This document shows positions 6,629 to 17,564 of a stretch of 44,766 nt of DNA, one piece after another. The notes beneath the pieces are model-generated. The model did no database searches and had not been told where the DNA came from. It saw only the letters and a list, made by a program, of their open reading frames with translations. Origin of the DNA: a virus (Duplodnaviria; Heunggongvirae; Uroviricota; Caudoviricetes); IMG/VR virus record IMGVR_UViG_2627854066_000006; one strand, given 5' to 3'. The translations under genes and the position numbers were made by a program. Each line of letters begins with the position of its first letter. Within the stretch, counting starts at the first letter, position 1.

Positions 6629-7048
6629 TTAAGAGGCTTTTTGTTTTTTCTTTCGTGCTAACTCTTCGTAAATTGCATTGTACTTCTGTTTTTTCTCTTC
6701 AAGAGTTTTTAAAAGTTCATCTGTCTCACTGTCAGGGAGCTCGTCCAGAAGGTCAATGATGATTTTTTGTCTTGGATTTAACTCCTGATAGAAACGTACC
6801 TGTCCACTTTCTTCTGTATCCTCTCCCAAAAGATAGGTTGGTGTTGTTCCTATTAGTGTTGCTAATTCCCTTAATTTCTCCCGGCGAGGAATTGTTTCGC
6901 CATTAAACCATTTGCTAACCGCTTTTGGTGTTAATTTCATTCGACGGGCAATTTCTGCCTGCCTTCCATGTTGTTCATAACCAGCGTTTTCACAGGCTAG
7001 CGCAAGCCTACTGGCGAACTCTTTACGCGCTTTATCTTCATGAACCAT
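6629..7048 (-). CDS. DicA-like HTH repressor (XRE family, no S24 peptidase domain)
   Basis: 139 aa; HTH segment QAEIARRMKLTPKAVSKWFNGE; C-terminal IIIDLLDELPDSETDELLKTLEEKKQKYNAIYEEL resembles recalled DicA LLELFNALPESEQDTQLAEMRARVKNFNKLFEEL. Divergent from the cro-like gene. Confidence 0.8.
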   Translation of the reverse strand: MVHEDKARKEFASRLALACENAGYEQHGRQAEIARRMKLTPKAVSKWFNGETIPRREKLRELATLIGTTPTYLLGEDTEESGQVRFYQELNPRQKIIIDLLDELPDSETDELLKTLEEKKQKYNAIYEELARKKKQKAS

Positions 7049-7127: not shown

Positions 7128-7382
7128 ATGAACCAGAAAACACTTGAAGATGTAATCAAAACTGTTCGCGTTGCTGTTGTGGCCGACGTTTGTGGTGTCA
7201 GCCAAAGAGCAATCTATAAATGGATGGATAACGGAAAATTGCCTCGCACAGAATATACCGGCGAAACAAATTACGCTGAAAAAATCGCTCTTGCATCAAA
7301 CGGATTATTTTCTGCCGATGCAATTTTAACTATTGGCAGGAATAAAACTACTACGAAAAAGCTGATGGGAGTTGATTCATGA
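7128..7382 (+). CDS. Cro-like / YdaS-DicC-like HTH regulator
   Basis: 84 aa from MNQKTLEDVIKTVRVAVVADVCGVSQRAIYKWMDNGKLP; GAGGGTGAT RBS; divergent from the repressor. Confidence 0.7.
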   Translation: MNQKTLEDVIKTVRVAVVADVCGVSQRAIYKWMDNGKLPRTEYTGETNYAEKIALASNGLFSADAILTIGRNKTTTKKLMGVDS

Positions 7383-7804
7383 AAATCAAGCATGAACACA
7401 TCCGCATGGCGATGAATGCCTGGGCGCATCCGGACGGCGAAAAAGTACCGGCTGCGAAAATTACCAAAGCGTATTTCGAGCTGGGAATGACGTTCCCGGA
7501 ACTGTATGACGACAGCCATCCGGAAGCCTTGGCTCGCAATACCCAGAAAATTTTCCGCTGGGTAGAGAAAGACACCCCTGATGCAGTTGAAAAAATTCAG
7601 GCGTTGTTACCAGCGATCGAAAAGGCAATGCCACCTTTGCTGGTGGCCAGAATGCGCAGCCACAGTTCAGCTTATTTTCGGGAGCTGGTGGAGACGCGGG
7701 AGCGATTGGTGAGAGACGCTGATGATTTTGTCGCAGTGGCAATCGCCGGTTTCAATCAGATGAACCGTGGTGGCCCGGCAGGAAATGCTGTGGCAGTACA
7801 TTGA
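7379..7804 (+). CDS. YdaT-like (CII-like) regulatory protein
   Basis: 141 aa; ATGA overlap with the cro-like gene; resembles Rac YdaT in size and position (MKIKHEHIRMAMNAWAHPDGEK...). Confidence 0.6.
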   Translation: MKIKHEHIRMAMNAWAHPDGEKVPAAKITKAYFELGMTFPELYDDSHPEALARNTQKIFRWVEKDTPDAVEKIQALLPAIEKAMPPLLVARMRSHSSAYFRELVETRERLVRDADDFVAVAIAGFNQMNRGGPAGNAVAVH

Positions 7805-7875: not shown

Positions 7876-8946
7876 ATGGCTAACGCCTGGCTCAGATTAT
7901 GGCATGACATGCCAAATGACCCTAAGTGGCGAACAATTGCCAGGGTGTCAGGGCAGCCAATTGCAACAGTGATGGCAGTGTATATCCACCTCCTGGTGAG
8001 CGCGTCACGAAATGTCACGCGAGGTCACATTGATGTCACGACAGAAGATTTGGCAAGTGCGCTCGACGTGACAGAAGAGGTAATTGATTCAATTTTGCAG
8101 ACGATGCAGGGGCGGGTACTTGATGGTGATTTAATCACTGGATGGGAAAAACGCCAGGTGCTTAAAGAGGACAACGGCAATATTTCGCAAACCGCAAAAT
8201 CTCCTGCAGAGCGCAAGAGGGCGCAGCGAGAGAGGGAAAGAAAGCAGGAACAAAATGGCGATTGTCACGGCGCGTCACGAAATGTCACGCACATGTCACG
8301 ACGAGTCACGACAGATAAAGATACAGATAAAGATACAGATCAAGAAGATCAAAACACTATGGTCCATGGCGTAAAAAACGCCACGAACCAGGCAGGGGAT
8401 GTTCAGACCGTCAATCCTGGTCAGCCAGCAGGCACGACACCGGAAGCCGATTCAGCGTATGCGCTGAAAGCCGATTCGGGCGCTGTGCAGCAGGTGATGA
8501 CCGCAAGGCCGGAGCAATCACACCAACTGCAGCAGCCTGAAGCCGATTCCGCCATTCAGCGGGAAGCCGATCGGGTAGTCCCGGAAAACACCGGGCAGCC
8601 TGTGGGACGAGTAGATTATCCGGATGTGTTCGAACAGGTCTGGCGGGAATACCCGTTGCGTGCTGGGGCAAACCCGAAGAAATCCGCTTTCAGTGCCTGG
8701 AAGGCCAGATTACGCGAGGGGGTGCCACCAGAGGCCATGCTGGATGGTGTGAGGCGTTACGCAAGATACCTGGCGGCTACCGGGAAAACGGGAACGGAAT
8801 TTGTTCAGCGAGCGACGACGTTTTTTGGACCGGACCGGAATTTTGAGAACCCTTGGTTGCTCCCGGTAAGCGGCACGAACAACCAGCGTTGTGTGAATCA
8901 TATTTCTGAACCGGATAACGAAATTCCGCCGGGCTTCAGGGGGTAA
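7876..8946 (+). CDS. Phage replication initiation protein (lambda O-like organisation, internal origin)
   Basis: N-terminus MANAWLRLWHDMPNDPKWRTIARVSG; repeat-rich linker (DKDTDKDTD, EADSA repeats); iteron clusters inside the gene. No P/DnaC-like loader gene follows. Confidence 0.65.
   Translation: MANAWLRLWHDMPNDPKWRTIARVSGQPIATVMAVYIHLLVSASRNVTRGHIDVTTEDLASALDVTEEVIDSILQTMQGRVLDGDLITGWEKRQVLKEDNGNISQTAKSPAERKRAQRERERKQEQNGDCHGASRNVTHMSRRVTTDKDTDKDTDQEDQNTMVHGVKNATNQAGDVQTVNPGQPAGTTPEADSAYALKADSGAVQQVMTARPEQSHQLQQPEADSAIQREADRVVPENTGQPVGRVDYPDVFEQVWREYPLRAGANPKKSAFSAWKARLREGVPPEAMLDGVRRYARYLAATGKTGTEFVQRATTFFGPDRNFENPWLLPVSGTNNQRCVNHISEPDNEIPPGFRG
8004..8310. repeat. Iteron arrays (GTCAC[G/A], 10-11 bp phasing) inside the replication gene; putative ori
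   Basis: Four copies at about 8004, 8014, 8024, 8035 and five at about 8264, 8274, 8284, 8295, 8305, followed by AT-rich tandem AGATAAAGATAC repeats (8311-8350). Confidence 0.6.
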
Positions 8947-8986
8947 GTGTTAATTTCTGGTCATGAGGTAATTTTCAGGAGGGCTT

Positions 8987-9412
8987 GTGGCAAAAGTATT
9001 TACACAAGAAGAGCGGGAAAAAATTAAGAGGCAGGTTGTTGAACTCGTGCGCCTGAGCGGGCGCGAGACGTTACGACAACTGGAAGCGAAAACAGGTGCG
9101 ACAAGATATCTGATGAGTGTTCTCGCCAGAGAGCTGGTTGCCAGTGGCGATGTATACAATTCTGGCTACGGGTTATTCCCGTCTGAACAGGCGCGTAAGG
9201 ACTGGCAAAATGCCCGCAAAAAACTCTCAAGGGCAAAGGTGAAGAAACCTGCAGTGGTTGATCCGGACCTTATCTGGTCGTTACCAGACGGCGAAATACG
9301 CCGCTACGACAGGCGCCTGAATATAATCTGTCGCGAGTGCCGGAAGAGCGAAGCTATGCAGCGTGTACTGGCATTTTATCAAGGAAATGTTAGGTATTTT
9401 AGACGTTACTAG
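8987..9412 (+). CDS. Hypothetical phage protein
   Basis: 141-aa ORF with GTG start and CAGGAGGG RBS; basic C-terminus; no family recognised. Confidence 0.5.
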   Translation: MAKVFTQEEREKIKRQVVELVRLSGRETLRQLEAKTGATRYLMSVLARELVASGDVYNSGYGLFPSEQARKDWQNARKKLSRAKVKKPAVVDPDLIWSLPDGEIRRYDRRLNIICRECRKSEAMQRVLAFYQGNVRYFRRY

Positions 9413-9565: not shown

Positions 9566-10252
9566 ATGACCCCAATAAAAATATTTATGACTATTGCTGA
9601 TTTCAAACGGCCTAAATTGGAGCTCCCAAACGGGGCAAACAAACTACTACTGCACTCTTGCTGTGCTCCATGTTCCGGTGAAGTGATGGAGGCGCTTCAG
9701 GCCTCGGGAATCGACTACACCATCTTTTTCTACAACCCGAACATTCATCCTCAGAAAGAGTATTTAATTCGTAAGGATGAAAATATTCGCTTTGCTGAAC
9801 AACACGGCGTGCCGTTTATCGATGCTGATTACGACACCGACAACTGGTTTGAACGTGCCAAAGGAATGGAATGGGAGCCTGAGAGGGGGATCCGTTGTAC
9901 CATGTGTTTTGACATGCGTTTTGAGCGGACAGCGTTGTACGCTGCTGAAAATGGTTTCAGTGTGATCAGCAGTTCACTGGGCATTTCACGCTGGAAAAAT
10001 ATGCAGCAGGTTAACGAGTGTGGGCGGCGAGCTGTTGCGCATTATCCGGGTATGGTGTACTGGGATTATAACTGGCGCAAGCAGGGCGGCTCGTCCCGTA
10101 TGATTGAAATCAGCAAGCGCGAAAAATTCTATCAGCAGGAATATTGTGGCTGTGTGTATTCTCTGCGCGATACCAATCTACACCGCAAATCTCAGGGACG
10201 CCCTCTTATCAAAATTGGCCAACTCCACTACGGAAAAGAAGAGAAGGAGTGA
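9566..10252 (+). CDS. QueH-family (DUF208) epoxyqueuosine reductase-like protein
   Basis: [18 protein letters not shown] and EYCGCVYS cysteine motifs in QueH-typical order and spacing. Start may be the second ATG at 9587. Confidence 0.7.
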
Positions 10253-10489
10253 TTTTATGGATCACCTTTCTGATTGATTTCATATTGGCGAGGTGACGTG
10301 AGTTAAGTAGAATGGCTGCGGGTGCTTGAGGCTATCTGTCTCAGGCATGAACACTGAAAGGCAGATAGAGAAAAGCCCCAGTTAACATTACGCGTCCGGC
10401 AAGACGCTTAACATTAATCTGAGGCTCAATCTATGAACGGCAAATCTAGGTTAGCCTCTTACGTGCCGAAAGGCAAGGAGAAGCAGGCT

Positions 10490-10645
10490 ATGAAGCAGCA
10501 AAAGGCGATGTTAATCGCCCTGATCGTCATCTGTTTAACCGTCATTGTGACGGCACTGGTAACGAGGAAAGACCTCTGCGAGGTACGAATCCGAACCGGC
10601 CAGACGGAGGTCGCTGTCTTCACAGCTTACGAACCTGAGGAGTAA
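10490..10645 (+). CDS. hokD: Hok/Gef-family type I toxin
   Basis: 51 aa MKQQKAMLIALIVICLTVIVTALVTRKDLCEVRIRTGQTEVAVFTAYEPEE, as recalled for HokD/RelF. In-frame upstream extension to 10433 (mok-like leader). Confidence 0.8.
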   Translation: MKQQKAMLIALIVICLTVIVTALVTRKDLCEVRIRTGQTEVAVFTAYEPEE

Positions 10646-12148: not shown

Positions 12149-12481
12149 ATGCTCATAGATTTGGTTTTACCTTACCCGCCGACGGTGAACACTTACTGGC
12201 GACGCCGTGGCAGCACATATTTTATCTCGGAGGAGGGAAAGCGTTATCGCCGGGCTGTGGCGCTTATTGTTCGCCAGCAGCGGCTGAAATTAAGCCTGTC
12301 CGGAAGGCTGGCGATAAAGGTGATTGCAGAGCCACCGGATAAGCGTCGTCGCGACCTGGACAATATCCTGAAAGCACCGCTGGATGCGCTGACGCATGCG
12401 GGAGTGTTAATGGACGATGAGCAGTTTGATGAAATCAATATCGTTCGTGGTCAGCCAGTATCTGGTGGACGTCTGGGGTGA
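12149..12481 (+). CDS. rusA: Holliday junction resolvase RusA
   Basis: LVLPYPPTVNTYWRRRG...PDKRRRDLDNILKAPLDALTHAGVLMDDEQ matches the RusA motif pattern. C-terminus ends at ...GGRLG, about 10 aa shorter than recalled K-12 RusA. Confidence 0.8.
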   Translation: MLIDLVLPYPPTVNTYWRRRGSTYFISEEGKRYRRAVALIVRQQRLKLSLSGRLAIKVIAEPPDKRRRDLDNILKAPLDALTHAGVLMDDEQFDEINIVRGQPVSGGRLG

Positions 12482-12518
12482 AGATTTACCCCATAATGCA
12501 TTAAGAGCAGGTCAAAAA

Positions 12519-13340
12519 ATGAAACTGGAAGATTTACCGAAATACTACTCCCCAAAATCCCCTGGCCTGACCGATGCATCGGCCTCAACGTCAAAAGATG
12601 CGCTGAGTATCACTGATGTGATGGCCGCGCAGGGCATGACACAGAATCGGGCTGAGATGGGTTTTTCTGCGTTCCTGGGGAAAATGGGCATCAGTATGAA
12701 TGACAGGGCGCGGGCAACAGAATTACTGGCAGATTATGCACTCAGTCGGTGCGATCGTGTGGCGGCGTTGAGAAAACTTCCGGCAGAAATAAAACCGGTA
12801 GTGATGCGCATTATGGCTTCGTACGCTTTTGAGGATTATGCCCGCAGCGCAGCGAGTAAAAAGCAGTGCCCTTGTTGCTATGGGGAAAAATTTATTGAAA
12901 GCATAGTTTTTACAAACAAGGTCCAGTATCCGGATGGTAAGCCGCCGGTATGGGCAAAGTGTACGAAAGGTGTGTATCCGTCTTACTGGGAAGAATGGAA
13001 AAAAGTCAGGGAGGTGGTAAAAGTTGCGTGTCCGGAGTGTGGCGGAAAGGGTGAGGTTTCCACCGCCTGTAAGGATTGCCGTGGGCGTGGTGTCGCCATT
13101 CATCGTGAAGAGTCGGTAAAACGTGGTATGCCTGTTATCAGAGACTGCCAGCGTTGTGGTGGTCGTGGCTATGAAAGACTACCATCAACGGAGGCATTTA
13201 ATGCCATACGCAAAGTGACGAGTGCTATCACGCTTGATACGTGGAAAAAATCAGTGAAACGCTTTTACGATACGTTGGTGGTTCGGTTTGACATTGAAGA
13301 GGCATGGGCGGAGCGGCAGTTAAAGAGGGTAACGCGATAG
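12519..13340 (+). CDS. Putative late-gene antiterminator Q-like protein with four CxxC(xGxG) zinc-finger repeats
   Basis: 273 aa from the internal Met with AAGAGCAGG RBS; motifs CPCCYGEK, CPECGGKGE, CKDCRGRG, CQRCGGRG. Sits between rusA and the lysis region. Q assignment is positional. Confidence 0.5.
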   Translation: MKLEDLPKYYSPKSPGLTDASASTSKDALSITDVMAAQGMTQNRAEMGFSAFLGKMGISMNDRARATELLADYALSRCDRVAALRKLPAEIKPVVMRIMASYAFEDYARSAASKKQCPCCYGEKFIESIVFTNKVQYPDGKPPVWAKCTKGVYPSYWEEWKKVREVVKVACPECGGKGEVSTACKDCRGRGVAIHREESVKRGMPVIRDCQRCGGRGYERLPSTEAFNAIRKVTSAITLDTWKKSVKRFYDTLVVRFDIEEAWAERQLKRVTR

Positions 13341-13620
13341 TATCGTTGATTTTTCCCGAATCTGTGTTAAATTCGCCCTAACGATGGGCGTTTTATGCCT
13401 GACGTTAGAGGAATTTTTACAGCCCGCCTCCGAGTGGGCTTTTGTTGATCGTAAAAACAGTATGTATGGTATCTAACAATAGGTGATTCCTGCTTTGATG
13501 CAGGATGTGGATATGATACTGTATGTTTGTACACTATCAATATGATCAAATAACCAGTAACCACTTTAAATGAATTGGTATTAAATTAGACTCTTCCCTA
13601 CTTCATTTGGATAAGAGTTT

Positions 13621-14661
13621 ATGGTTTCTGAAACTGTAACGATTACGTTCTATAAAATTCAAAAATGTGGTTACTACCGTTACGGTGTTGTAAGCCCTGC
13701 ATTTGGTGGTTGTGACGAGTTGCTCACAGATCTTGCTTTATGGGCAGAAGGGAAAAAACTCAAACAGACAAAGACATATGAAGCAAATGATGAGGTTTTA
13801 CCTGCTTATCTTCTGGATATGAAACGTGCTGGTGACAATGTGGTTTTGTTGCTCTGGAATGAGGTTCCTTCTACAGATCAAAGTGTTCCATCGGTTCAGG
13901 AAGATACAGAATTTGGTACGGACCCAACAGTAATACTTAATTCAATCCAGAAGGGAAGTATTCCTGGTTTTGCTACTTACTTTTGGTTTATTCCATCCAT
14001 GGATTTAGTGGCTAGCATCAAGTTTAACCATGCTTTGACGGGACAGAAGGCGATGCAATGCTATCTCTATCATTTTTTAAAACAGTCATCAAGCCACGTT
14101 GTGGCGGAAAGTGTGGAGAAGGAAGATGGCACGCATGAGGTGGTTATCAAGGGCTATAAAATTAACCCAACAGATGATGTGCTGCCAAAGAAAAAACACT
14201 ATCCACAGTTCGTAGCTGGTTTAGTAAGAAATCCTGGTAAACATGAAGTTATTAGGCAGAATGCTAATATTGTTTCTAAAATTGAAAAGGTTGTTGAACT
14301 TGATGTGTCAAAACCTGACGAGTTTAGCCTGTGGCAAAAACTATTGATTAATATGAATATTAGCCATCCACAAACTGCAAATACCTCAACAAAAATTAAA
14401 TATGAACTTTCTCCGAATGTTGATATTGATGACATCGAGGGGATGATTGATGATTGGAATAAACATAGCGATACAAACTCTTGTGATTATGGTTTTGTAT
14501 TTAAAGGAGATCCAACGACATATTGGCTCAGTCGTTCATTAGCACGAACCAAATTCCACTTGAATTTGGAGCGACAGGACGCCGAGTTTGTGTCCTCGGA
14601 ATCTCTTCTTTCTGAACTTGTAGGCAAAAGGGAGCTCATATTACGCGAGGCGGGAATGTAG
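13621..14661 (+). CDS. Uncharacterized 346-aa soluble protein; first gene of an AT-rich two-gene moron
   Basis: Long ORF in a low-GC block (roughly 35-40% versus about 50% in flanks); no TM segments; no family recognised. Stop TAG abuts the next ATG. Confidence 0.65.
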   Translation: MVSETVTITFYKIQKCGYYRYGVVSPAFGGCDELLTDLALWAEGKKLKQTKTYEANDEVLPAYLLDMKRAGDNVVLLLWNEVPSTDQSVPSVQEDTEFGTDPTVILNSIQKGSIPGFATYFWFIPSMDLVASIKFNHALTGQKAMQCYLYHFLKQSSSHVVAESVEKEDGTHEVVIKGYKINPTDDVLPKKKHYPQFVAGLVRNPGKHEVIRQNANIVSKIEKVVELDVSKPDEFSLWQKLLINMNISHPQTANTSTKIKYELSPNVDIDDIEGMIDDWNKHSDTNSCDYGFVFKGDPTTYWLSRSLARTKFHLNLERQDAEFVSSESLLSELVGKRELILREAGM

Positions 14662-15171
14662 ATGAAAATCTTAGGTGGAATTTTTCTTATGGTCGTTCTG
14701 ATTTTTTCTGCCTATTTTGGGAAGAATGTTCCCTTCTCATCCCAGTGGCCTCTTTATGAGGCCCTGCGAACTACAGCATCCATTATCTTTGCAGTTGTGG
14801 GAGCTTGGTTTGCGATAATCTATCCTGAACGATTAAAAAAATCATTTAGAGGTGGCAGTTCAGCGAGTGAATCTAATGGCAGTGGGATTACAAGGTTATT
14901 TACACCAATTGTACATTCTACTGCTATTTTAGCATCAGTTTTAATTATTGGCGTTGTTGCGCCATTAGTAAAACAGATACCGTTTTTTATAGATCACAAG
15001 GACATTTTTAGGGGCGCGTCATATGCCATTTTGGTTTTTTTAACTTTATGGCAACTGTTGACAGTAATTTATAGTCTCATTGGTCCTGATATGGTTAAAA
15101 GACATAACTCGTTCCAAGAGAGAGAGAAAGATGCTGCTAATTCTATATTACCTGTCAATAAACGCAAATAA
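14662..15171 (+). CDS. Uncharacterized 169-aa membrane protein (four predicted TM helices, charged C-terminal tail); second gene of the moron
   Basis: Hydrophobic segments ILGGIFLMVVLIFSAYFG, TASIIFAVVGAWFAIIY, STAILASVLIIGVVAPLV, ASYAILVFLTLWQLLTVIYSLIG; terminator follows. Confidence 0.65.
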   Translation: MKILGGIFLMVVLIFSAYFGKNVPFSSQWPLYEALRTTASIIFAVVGAWFAIIYPERLKKSFRGGSSASESNGSGITRLFTPIVHSTAILASVLIIGVVAPLVKQIPFFIDHKDIFRGASYAILVFLTLWQLLTVIYSLIGPDMVKRHNSFQEREKDAANSILPVNKRK

Positions 15172-15266
15172 CATTTAAGTTAGTAAATTCGTTTCTTGAG
15201 TCGAGTCGCCATGTTGATGGTTTTTTATTTATTATAACGAATAACGGGTTCTTTTGATCATTTTAT

Positions 15267-15289
15267 CCGCCGTACTAGGCGGTTTTTTT
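15267..15289 (+). terminator. Rho-independent terminator after the two-gene moron
   Basis: CCGCC-GTACTA-GGCGG hairpin followed by TTTTTTT. Confidence 0.55.
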
Positions 15290-15462
15290 ATTCAGAATTT
15301 TGTTTCTTTATGGCTCGCTACGGCGGGCCTTTTTCATATCCGCGCCACGTCCGGCGTACATCGCATCAGATAACACCACACAAAAGGCATCTGCGGGTGT
15401 CTTTGACGGGGTGTTTTTTACGGGCCGCTGGTGGCCCTTTTTTATTTACAGGAGAAAAAAGT

Positions 15463-15855
15463 ATGTCTGAACCCTTATCCGGTTCCGGCACGGCTGCGGC
15501 GCTCGGTGGGGCGACGGTATTCGGGCTGTTTACCGGAACGGATTTCGGGATTGTGTTTGGTGCGTTTGCGGGAGCGTTGTTTGTGGCAACAATGCCGCAG
15601 GCGCTTTCAGCCTGGCGTGTGGCGGCGCATTTTCTTGTGTCGTTTATTATCGGTGTGCTGGGTGCAGAGGTTCTGGCATCCTGGCTGGTAAAGCATACAG
15701 AGTTTGACGGTGCGCCTGTCGACGCACTGTGTGCAGTGCTGGTGTCAGTGGTGTCGGTGAAGATTCTCTCGTTCATCCACCAGCAGGATATTGCATCACT
15801 GGTGTCCGGTCTGTTCTCCCGCCTGCGGGGCGGAGGAGGCGGCAATGTTAAGTAA
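15463..15855 (+). CDS. Putative holin / lysis membrane protein
   Basis: 130 aa from the internal Met with AGGAGA RBS; hydrophobic glycine-rich segments; first gene of the lysis cluster. Confidence 0.5.
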   Translation: MSEPLSGSGTAAALGGATVFGLFTGTDFGIVFGAFAGALFVATMPQALSAWRVAAHFLVSFIIGVLGAEVLASWLVKHTEFDGAPVDALCAVLVSVVSVKILSFIHQQDIASLVSGLFSRLRGGGGGNVK

Positions 15856-16120
15856 CCTTCCCGGATTGCTGAATGTGGCGTTATGCACGGTTATCGTGCT
15901 GACGCTCTTTTTTTATCGTCGTCGTGACTCCAGACACAAACCATTGATGTCATGGCTGGCCTGGCTGCTGATGCTGTTGTATGCCTTTGCGCCCCTCAGC
16001 TATCTGTGTGGTCGCCCGTTAGCAACGGGCTGGCTGGAAGTGTTTTTTAATCTGCTGTTCTGCGTGCTGGTGATACGCGCGCGCGGGAACGTCACAAAAA
16101 TTTTTCCATTGTTGAGGTGA
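15845..16120 (+). CDS. Putative holin-like membrane protein
   Basis: 91 aa from the internal Met, two to three predicted TM helices (LLNVALCTVIVLTLFFY, LAWLLMLLYAFAPLSYL, VFFNLLFCVLVI); overlaps the upstream stop; immediately precedes the endolysin. Confidence 0.5.
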   Translation: MLSNLPGLLNVALCTVIVLTLFFYRRRDSRHKPLMSWLAWLLMLLYAFAPLSYLCGRPLATGWLEVFFNLLFCVLVIRARGNVTKIFPLLR

Positions 16121-16514: not shown

Positions 16515-16700
16515 ATGAGCAGAAAACACTGGACACACAGAATGCCGCGAACGGCGGCGAAATGGGCACTGGTAGCGATACTGGTGCCTTTTTTATTGGC
16601 GGGATGCGTTAGCCTGGATAAGGCACGCCAGTTTTTTGACGCTGCTTCTCAGGCCTGCCAACTGATTGATGGCATCCGGCAGTGTATGCAGCGAGGTTAG
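16515..16700 (+). CDS. Small lipoprotein (lipobox LLAGC); possible spanin-like remnant
   Basis: 61 aa with signal peptide and lipobox, in the Rz/Rz1 position after the endolysin. No full-length i-spanin gene is present. Confidence 0.4.
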   Translation: MSRKHWTHRMPRTAAKWALVAILVPFLLAGCVSLDKARQFFDAASQACQLIDGIRQCMQRG

Positions 16701-16746
16701 ATAAAGTGAACTCAATTCATCCTCGCATATTTATTCAGGAGGAAAT

Positions 16747-16881
16747 ATGTTTCTTTTCCCAAAGATTTTTAATATTGCTATGAAGTCAAAATTATTAAAA
16801 ATTCTCAATAAAAAACCTGAGGGCGCAGTTGATAATACGGGAGCGTTTTACTTAAAAGGAAATATTACATACACCAGATAA
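16747..16881 (+). CDS. Hypothetical 44-aa protein in AT-rich islet
   Basis: Hand-translated MFLFPKIFNIAMKSKLLKILNKKPEGAVDNTGAFYLKGNITYTR; AGGAGG RBS 5 nt upstream. Confidence 0.3.
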   Translation: MFLFPKIFNIAMKSKLLKILNKKPEGAVDNTGAFYLKGNITYTR

Positions 16882-16909
16882 AGAAAAGGGGGGAGGTTGC
16901 TCCCTCCCC
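16879..16909 (-). terminator. Hairpin terminator for the minus-strand gene of the AT-rich islet
   Basis: GGGGAGG-TTGCTC-CCTCCCC hairpin; on the minus strand it is followed by TTTTCTTTAT. Confidence 0.4.
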
Positions 16910-16933
16910 GCTCCTGTAAACGATGGATTCAGA

Positions 16934-17143
16934 TTATATCTTTGGGTTGAAATTACTATATAAGCTGGCCTCTTCATTAAGCCCGACGCCTTTTAGATCT
17001 GCAATGAATGAATCACGCTGTTCTGGAGGTAGTTTAGCCAATAATATTCCAATCGTAACTTTTAAACGGGAAATTTCTAAAGCTACGTCAGAAATGGTTT
17101 CAACCTTTGTTGTTACATTTAAATTTATATTAAAGCTTGTCAT
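16934..17143 (-). CDS. Hypothetical 69-aa protein in AT-rich islet
   Basis: From the internal Met of ORF 16934..17173 with AAGGA RBS; followed by the hairpin terminator above. Confidence 0.4.
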   Translation of the reverse strand: MTSFNINLNVTTKVETISDVALEISRLKVTIGILLAKLPPEQRDSFIADLKGVGLNEEASLYSNFNPKI

Positions 17144-17564
17144 TGTCATTCCTTTTGCGGAGCCGTTAGCCAAGGCTCTTATTCATTGTTCACACAGTGT
17201 CCGATCACTGGAGGGCTGAGGTTGTATTTTAACAATGGATAAAGCGCATAAAAACCAGGATATTCAACCAGTAAGCGACAAAAGGAGTATTGTCCACAGC
17301 ATTACAGCAGCCCTTCCGTTGAACTGACCCCATAAAATCGGAAATTGTTTCTGCTGACTCTCCATTTTTATTGGATGGGCGGTTGTGTGGGGGTCATTCA
17401 CTGGTGCTGAGCATCGAAACGAATGCAAATCGCTGTCGTGAATTGCTTGATGAAACAATGCAGCTTGTCAATGAACATAATCAGCACGCTGTGGCGGCGG
17501 GACTGAATGCAATACATGTTATCCCCGAGAGAGAAACGTTTTAATCGCTGGAGAACGAAGTTCC

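Follow-up and report, generated by a model that had tools for sequence, protein, structure and literature searches.

A PDC-M18 gene pair with a RexA-type fold and a four-helix membrane partner, carried as mobile cargo between Q and the lysis genes of a Rac-like prophage

The viral record IMGVR_UViG_2627854066_000006 (44,766 nt, referred to in its entirety as the window) is, as read from its gene content, a Rac-like lambdoid prophage. Between its Q antiterminator gene and its lysis genes lie two genes, here called A and B, that together form a member of the PDC-M18 family. Open reading frame (ORF) calling places gene A at 13621-14661 and gene B at 14662-15171, both on the + strand and both starting with ATG. 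Gene A encodes an acidic cytoplasmic protein of 346 amino acids (pI 5.45) with a RexA/RdgC-like fold and no catalytic motif, and gene B a basic inner-membrane protein of 169 amino acids (pI 10) with four predicted transmembrane (TM) helices. We read the pair as a mobile, phage-borne, RexAB-like exclusion or abortive-infection cassette and give this reading about an even chance of being right. It is the best supported of those considered because of the PDC-M18 matches, the RexA fold of A, and the carriage of the family by prophages and P4 satellites.

Both proteins were compared with the defence models of PADLOC-DB. Protein A was matched by six PDC-M18A models, including PDLC04496 (E 1.6e-196) and PDLC04494 (E 1.1e-138, residues 1-343), and protein B by the PDC-M18B models PDLC04500 (E 3.4e-75) and PDLC04499 (E 8.7e-68). 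No other defence model in PADLOC-DB matched either protein, and Pfam and NCBIfam assigned no family to A or B. As the A and B models fall on adjacent genes of the same strand, the module is a PDC-M18 system. A first-pass annotation of this DNA had recognized no family for either protein, a statement that holds for Pfam and is overturned by PADLOC.

The PDCs are PADLOC's unpublished putative defence candidates, most of which are unvalidated (PMC12988326). Domainator 2024 (PMC11754643) treats PDC-M18 as the same thing as "system #4" in the P4 satellite hotspot described by Rousset et al. 2022, who wrote of this system that it has "weak homology to RexA" and "might be a distant homolog of RexAB". 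PDC-M18 and system #4 have in common two genes, the first for a soluble protein and the second for a four-TM protein, and the window proteins match the family's hidden Markov models over their full length. The P4 variant differs in that it sits in a satellite rather than in a lambdoid Q-to-lysis slot and is without a LexA box. A second system of Rousset et al., the validated "Hydrolase+3TM", was considered as an identity for the module and rejected, as its first protein is a HAD hydrolase. The module was therefore already catalogued and already suspected to be Rex-like. What is new is the confirmation at the level of fold, the family-wide coupling of the two genes, the asymmetry in conservation between A and B, the recurrent placement ahead of lysis genes, and the contrast between LexA-box and cI-linked regulation.

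Protein A has no TM segment by hydropathy. An AlphaFold2 model built on a 55-sequence alignment was obtained with high confidence (mean predicted local distance difference test score, pLDDT, 89.4; predicted template modelling score, pTM, 0.80), and this model and the fold search give A a fold of the RexA type, an RdgC-like fold in which a split globular domain is joined to a dimerization domain. The invariant residues of A are mainly aromatic or glycine and hold no catalytic signature. Pfam, NCBIfam and hmmsearch against PDB sequences returned no significant RexA or RexB homology for A or B, and hhalign of A with lambda RexA gave nothing significant. As no homology was found at the level of sequence, the relationship is claimed at the level of fold only, that is, a RexA fold and not membership of the RexA family by sequence. 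No nucleotidyltransferase appeared in the fold search with A and no CD-NTase or cyclase model of PADLOC or Pfam matched; CBASS and Pycsar, already judged unlikely from the sequence motifs of A, can be set aside.

The hydrophobic segments of protein B span about residues 1-25, 33-57, 76-110 and 115-143, with a second loop and a C-terminal tail rich in K and R. Hydropathy and loop charges together predict an N-in/C-in topology. AlphaFold2 modelled B as four long helices (pLDDT 73). The description of the pair as one soluble protein and one four-TM protein, first made from the translations, is therefore upheld. In a 51-sequence alignment the TM2 motif QWPL(F/Y)EALRTTASIIFAVVGAW.AIIYPERLK is extremely conserved, and the residues in TM2 and at the beginning of the cytoplasmic loop that are invariant across gamma- and beta-proteobacteria include F25, Q28-W29-P30, E33, R36, T38, Y54-P55 and R57. 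Membership of B in a holin family was rejected: comparison with holin families gave sub-threshold noise only in Pfam, the PHROGs match was phrog_37654 ("unknown function"), and the true holins lie downstream.

We compared the module across about 80 loci, comprising 29 species-representative genome loci (28 of them with upstream sequence) and 53 viral contigs. The family extends through gamma- and beta-proteobacteria, phages and satellites. The A profile recovered 749 representatives at 50% identity, all single-domain proteins of about 330-375 amino acids, and B fell into 355 clusters at 90% identity. An A homolog lay directly 5' of B in all 28 genome loci with upstream sequence, and B followed A in 52 of the 53 viral contigs, the remaining contig being truncated. 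In the window the TAG stop codon of A (14659-14661) abuts the ATG of B (14662-14664) on the + strand without a gap, as first noted from the sequence, and this junction at 14659-14664 is consistent with translational coupling. In most of the 28 genome loci and most of the 52 viral contigs, the two genes either overlap by 4 nt (ATGA/GTGA) or lie less than 10 nt apart. Of 300 locus pairs, 294 showed a higher identity in B than in A, the mean identities being 48% for B and 35% for A. One apparent exception to an intact A was seen in Rosenbergiella gaditana (L005, 5950-6998), where A is divided into two ORFs of 75 and 274 amino acids by an apparent frameshift while B and the LexA box are intact.

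By analogy with lambda RexAB and with RexABpp of Pseudomonas putida, we propose the following mechanism. Protein A, cytoplasmic and probably dimeric, would detect a feature of infection, probably phage DNA or a protein-DNA intermediate, and would then activate B, the proportion of the two proteins being held fixed through translational coupling. B would oligomerize in the inner membrane into a channel or pore, and the resulting collapse of membrane potential and ATP would halt phage development. RexApp of P. putida is a DNA-binding protein, and overexpressing it leads to RexBpp-dependent membrane permeabilization (Sci Rep 2026). The first-pass annotation had likewise cast the soluble protein as sensor and the membrane protein as effector; the pair architecture that it described stands, while the assignment of roles is our inference and has a rival in the reverse polarity, considered below.

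Several observations weigh against this reading. An exclusion or abortive-infection pair was what the architecture had suggested from the outset, and it is still the best-supported account, but anti-phage activity has been shown for no PDC-M18 member: the one member tested, pFR81 ("RexA + 4TM"), which was assayed on its native promoter against eight coliphages, is listed in Table S2B of Rousset et al. 2022 among the systems without activity. The identity of this P4 variant with the window proteins is only 21% for A and 25% for B, a distance at which its negative result says little about the subfamily in the window. Sequence profiles also gave no homology, and Foldseek against the PDB gave no match; hhalign of the A family with a 29-sequence RexA-family alignment gave a probability of 0.4%, and of the B family with lambda RexB 0.1%; A had no hit to the Pfam RexA family (PF15969) at E<=10; the PADLOC RexA model matched lambda RexA and not A; and B was matched by no RexB model of Pfam or PADLOC. 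The acidity of A (the A-family median pI is 5.7) is not expected of a DNA binder, although the RexA-family median is itself only 6.7. Net charge was therefore set aside as evidence on DNA binding, the RexA family itself being near neutral. No link between the validated P. putida RexABpp and PDC-M18 was found. Finally, LexA control and a Q-dependent late position fit a role in prophage induction at least as well as that of a lysogen sentinel.

The reverse polarity is modelled on Kiwa, and we regard it as unlikely, although it is the best placed of the alternatives. Here B would be the membrane sensor, responding to adsorption, DNA ejection or envelope stress, and A the effector, clamping phage DNA to block its replication or late transcription while the cell is left alive. 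Kiwa likewise combines the four-TM KwaA with the soluble, dimeric, DNA-binding KwaB, the membrane protein sensing and the soluble protein acting on DNA (PMC11785009). The known members of the fold of A, RexA and RdgC, bind DNA non-specifically, and the faster divergence of A is what would be expected of a target of phage inhibitors such as DNA mimics. Membership in Kiwa itself can be dismissed, as neither protein was matched by DUF4868/KwaB or by any other Kiwa model in Pfam or PADLOC and the order of the genes is opposite, with the soluble gene first here; both points also count against a Kiwa-like division of labour. So do the acidity of A and the extreme conservation of polar TM2 residues in B, which suits a channel, and in RexAB and RexABpp, the closest functional precedents, it is the membrane protein that is the growth-arresting effector.

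The region upstream of A holds several candidate regulatory elements. A candidate -35 element, TTGATG (the "CTTG" motif), at 13495-13500 on the + strand is conserved across Enterobacterales cassettes. It is followed by a degenerate LexA (SOS) box, box 1, at 13517-13536 (TACTGTATGTTTGTACACTA, with CAC instead of CAG); a weak LexA-like box, box 2, at 13540-13559 (ATATGATCAAATAACCAGTA, with ATG instead of CTG); and, on the + strand at 13576-13589, a candidate extended -10 element (TGgTATTAAATTAG) located 33-45 nt 5' of the A start codon. In an alignment of seven Enterobacterales cassettes, the TATTAAAT core of the -10-like element was near-invariant. A consensus scan detected no strong + strand sigma-70 promoter 5' of A, and the elements named here are putative ones identified by their conservation across species. 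The best sigma-70 match in 13200-15600 was on the minus strand at 13513-13540 (TTGATA, 16-nt spacer, TATCAT; 10/12); it overlaps box 1, points toward Q, and may be either a promoter (divergent or antisense) or just a by-product of the AT-rich palindrome. An Rfam scan of 12800-16000 gave sub-threshold noise only.

In the relatives, box 1 takes the canonical form CTGT-N8-ACAG, for example TACTGTATATTTATACAGT, about 100 nt 5' of the A start, and a second CTG-N10-CAG often follows about 25 nt on. All ten of the other Enterobacterales lineages have at least one perfect box at -71 to -107, some of them at one position only. At the box 1 position, a perfect CTGT-N8-ACAG was present in 9 of the 10 other Enterobacterales genome lineages; box 1 is degenerate in Yersinia ruckeri and could not be discerned in Providencia, but in both a perfect box 2 is present. 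A perfect CTG-N10-CAG at the box 2 position was found in Pantoea, Y. massiliensis, Y. ruckeri, Providencia and many viral contigs. All 18 viral contigs from outside E. coli whose A is at least 48% identical to that of the window carry a perfect box, against a background of 0.025 per 300 bp. The boxes accompany the cassette in every kind of surrounding element and so belong to the cassette itself. Among the distant viral loci (<=42% identity), a LexA box was absent from 27 of 28, as it was from the P4 variant. The sole contig of this distant clade with a LexA-type box (L092; TGCTGTATAAAAATACAGCA) has it at -30 rather than at about -100, and this may represent an independent acquisition of SOS control.

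The E. coli copy departs from this pattern. Both box lesions (CAC and ATG) are fixed in 32 of the 33 E. coli genomes that carry the cassette, and each hits an invariant triplet. By an approximate heterology index, which is indicative only, box 1 scores 6.6 and box 2 scores 13.4; no other LexA-like site in the 44.7 kb of the window scores better than box 1. We infer that the relatives are under SOS control and that this control has been weakened in the E. coli copy. The cassette promoter, overlapped by one or two LexA boxes in Enterobacterales, should be SOS-inducible, and with both boxes degenerate the E. coli copy would probably be leaky or constitutive. The prophage repressor candidate of the window (6629-7048, minus strand; 139 amino acids) has an HTH_3 domain only and lacks the S24 autocleavage domain, and is paired with a YdaT-family gene (7379-7804, + strand) in a switch of the Rac/CP-933P type. 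SOS input through CI self-cleavage is therefore unlikely in this prophage, which makes LexA-type boxes on its cargo the more noteworthy.

The boundaries of the cassette were determined by megablast against 5,426 complete E. coli genomes, taking the points at which homology of the flanks stops and restarts. The mobile cassette so defined spans approximately 13444-15257 on the + strand and comprises genes A and B, a regulatory region of its own ahead of them and, after them, a short 3' untranslated region. The left flank (12400-13443, the Q gene and about 100 nt beyond it) is common to thousands of prophages and its homology stops at about 13443; homology of the right flank restarts at about 15258, for example in a match with prophage RM10740, which carries different cargo. 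The GC content of the cassette is 0.378, compared with 0.52-0.55 in the flanking genes and 0.514 in the whole window. Upstream lie genes for DUF968, RusA and the Q antiterminator (PF03589, E 6e-52), and downstream two holins (PF16931 and PF05449) and an M15 endolysin. The first-pass annotation had described a discrete AT-rich block with an upstream region of its own between a Q-like gene and the lysis genes, and had taken this position for a cargo slot; all of this is confirmed. Between the same flanks, other E. coli prophages carry ompC, AraC and tRNA-Gly genes or a DNA methyltransferase with tRNAs, and the Q-to-lysis gap is a general hotspot for variable cargo.

Region 13341-15300 was matched at >=80% coverage in 33 of the 5,426 genomes, in every one of which the two genes are annotated as hypothetical proteins. 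The regulatory region was found in the same number of genomes and was 100% identical in 32 of the 33. In E. coli CP61_Sichuan (NZ_CP053730.1, 2835416-2838636) the match is in two pieces over 3.2 kb with an IS3-family transposase between them, indicating that the cassette has been disrupted by an insertion sequence in this strain.

The two flanks contribute further elements. Just after the Q stop codon, a candidate late promoter resembling PR' was read by eye at 13346-13373 on the + strand (TTGATT, 16-nt spacer, TGtTAAATT); it scores under the promoter-scan threshold and sits in the flank common to many E. coli prophages with this Q gene. Two terminator-like hairpins were detected by a terminator scan in this shared left flank on the + strand, at 13374-13390 and at 13421-13440, the latter followed by a T-run. 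The Q-proximal leader (13365-13450) folds strongly (-30.3 kcal/mol, z -3.56). The leader hairpins (13374-13443), shared with many prophages that have this Q, are probably the PR' leader and the tR' terminator on which Q acts, and they may shield the cassette against late transcription in the absence of active Q. Q-modified late transcription should also read through the cassette in this slot. Downstream, an intrinsic terminator lies at 15267-15289 on the + strand (CCGCC..GGCGG then T7; z -3.61). It had been noted in the first-pass annotation as the terminator of the module. The terminator is real, but the right-flank homology shared with prophages of different cargo begins at about 15258, and it therefore belongs to the pre-holin flank and not to the cassette.

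Outside E. coli the cassette occupies a variety of sites, the contexts of the genome loci being taken from Pfam and PHROG annotations; phmmer searches around the 29 genome loci found no homolog of Q or of the holins. Placement between Q and lysis genes occurs with three unrelated Q families, PF03589 (E. coli, Providencia and Y. ruckeri), PF06323 (Hafnia) and PF06530 (Serratia), and these loci differ in their holin and endolysin families as well. In a Mu-like prophage of Chromobacterium violaceum the cassette lies directly 5' of the endolysin gene, in Citrobacter in a tail-region moron slot adjoining Arc/Ant, in Pectobacterium after a primase, and in P4 satellites in the psu-int defence hotspot. 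The commonest flanking ORFs are CI/LexA-type repressors, CII-like proteins, Rha and Ant, and the census also included holins, endolysins, spanins and two type I restriction-modification loci. About a quarter of the loci lie directly 5' of lysis genes. Upstream of A and on the same strand, a CI-type repressor (HTH_3 + S24) was found in L028 and in L013 and L030, where it ends 90 nt and 179 nt away, respectively; an HTH or CI-like gene is so placed in 14 of the 28 distant viral loci.

The recurrent proximity to lysis genes raises the possibility that the pair serves the phage itself, in induction or late growth. Depolarization by B might trigger the adjacent holins under the control of A, or the pair might, like lambda RexA, stabilize the switch from lysogeny to lytic growth. 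We consider this doubtful. Lysis proteins are the commonest downstream neighbours in the viral contigs, and the cassette lies directly 5' of holin, endolysin or spanin genes in E. coli, Providencia, Hafnia, Serratia, Y. ruckeri, the Mu-like prophage of C. violaceum and loci L007, L014, L016 and L017. LexA boxes and a Q-dependent position would both time expression to SOS or induction, and RexA and RexB of lambda are reported to assist the lysogeny-to-lytic transition (bioRxiv 10.1101/2021.04.19.439022; summarized in PMC11077077). However, the same cassette is also found away from lysis genes, in the P4 psu-int hotspot, in the tail-gene moron slot by Arc/Ant, beside type I restriction-modification loci and next to cI. 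Adjacency to lysis genes may be positional only, as the Q-to-lysis gap is a general cargo hotspot, and B matched no holin family in Pfam or PHROGs.

A related and similarly improbable form of this idea retains the Rex-like device and places it on the prophage's own lytic switch, set by LexA and by Q-dependent late transcription, rather than in the lysogen as a sentinel; many unrelated phages have the cassette beside their holin genes. Protein A would then monitor the status of DNA in the induced cell and gate the channel formed by B. If this were so, depolarization would guard the virion factory against superinfecting phages or satellites, or would fire the adjacent holins as a DNA-sensing lysis trigger, and the looser LexA control of the E. 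coli lineage would be a secondary change.

LexA-box control of small depolarizing membrane proteins is well known in E. coli, where tisB, hokE and dinQ are examples. An addiction module or an SOS-induced membrane toxin comparable to TisB, Hok or the colicin-lysis proteins, with B as the toxin and A as its regulator or antidote acting in dormancy or retention of the element, would agree with this precedent, with the LexA boxes kept in the Enterobacterales clade, with the tight coupling of the pair and with a hok gene on the same prophage, but is very improbable given that A is large, conserved, of RexA fold and unlike known antitoxins, that the distant clades lack LexA boxes and are linked to cI instead, and that the family, a defence candidate in PADLOC, is abundant in the defence hotspot of P4.

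The rest of the window conforms to the Rac-like type, with an integrase, a RecE-like exonuclease, the HTH_3-only repressor, YdaT, QueH and Hok, followed by head and tail genes. Other cargo in the early-right region consists of the epoxyqueuosine reductase QueH (9566-10252; PF02677, E 1e-65) and the Hok/Gef toxin (10433-10645; E 3e-23). A second AT-rich block at 16600-17400 (GC 0.385-0.41), directly after the lysis genes, contains small ORFs only, such as that at 16934-17143 on the minus strand, which is labelled hypothetical in a related genome; this block may be another cargo slot. Two relatives have neighbourhoods of their own interest. A Y. ruckeri prophage with A and B (L052) carries a gene of the Acb2/Tad1-hairpin family, an anti-CBASS/Thoeris sponge, just 3' of its lysis cassette (8791-9072), so that defence and counter-defence cargo would be carried together on one phage. 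In Providencia stuartii (L038, 12135-15841), the degraded lambdoid prophage that bears A and B has as neighbours a P4-like GPA primase and a gene for AIPR (abortive infection), an arrangement that points to a satellite or defence islet adjoining the prophage.

What triggers RexA and how RexB acts have been at issue ever since the rII experiments of about 70 years ago. The present analysis assigns to the RexA structural class a family with about 750 representatives (at 50% identity), which offers comparative handles beyond lambda: the polar TM2 motif is almost invariant, the soluble partner evolves fast, translational coupling is strict, and there are two regulatory designs, one linked to cI and one with LexA boxes. 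Members of the LexA-box clade, if tested on their native promoters without SOS induction, might score as negative because they are repressed; this does not explain the negative result of the P4-type variant, which has no LexA box. The hypothetical proteins in the 33 complete E. coli genomes can now be labelled PDC-M18/RexAB-like.

With Kiwa the module shares the combination of a four-TM protein with a soluble partner known or predicted to bind DNA as a dimer, and both occur in the P4 hotspot; the membrane protein of Kiwa, however, is the sensor and its defence does not proceed by membrane collapse. RexABpp of the P. putida prophage P1 (PP_5643/PP_5644) is probably a lineage separate from PDC-M18: RexApp matches RexA at 98% in HHpred, compared with less than 1% for the A family by profile comparison, and neither the RexApp and RexBpp termini, known from published primers, nor the positions of the mutated RexBpp residues had a match among the PDC-M18 sequences compared. 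The Rex-like pairs of actinobacteriophages (Sbash gp30/31, CarolAnn gp44 and Toast gp42) are likewise borne by temperate phages and exclude other phages, and combine a RexA-like DNA-binding protein of 337-372 amino acids, near A in size, with a membrane partner; they belong to another phylum.

Lambda RexAB differs from the module in several respects. It has no detectable sequence homology to A or B, A is 67 residues longer than RexA and acidic, and the lambda genes are separated by a 15-nt gap where those of PDC-M18 overlap or abut. The lambda pair lies in the immunity region under PRM, whereas the copy in the window lies in the late region, between Q and the holins and 6.5 kb from the prophage repressor, under candidate LexA and Q control. 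The module thus has the fold and architecture of RexAB without its sequence, and the position of RexAB is found in some of its relatives rather than here: the layout of L013 and L030 is that of lambda cI-rexA-rexB. In both systems the four-TM partner is encoded directly 3' on the same strand, an arrangement kept throughout the PDC-M18 loci compared, and the charge pattern of B, N-in/C-in with four TM helices, is like that of RexB and RexBpp.

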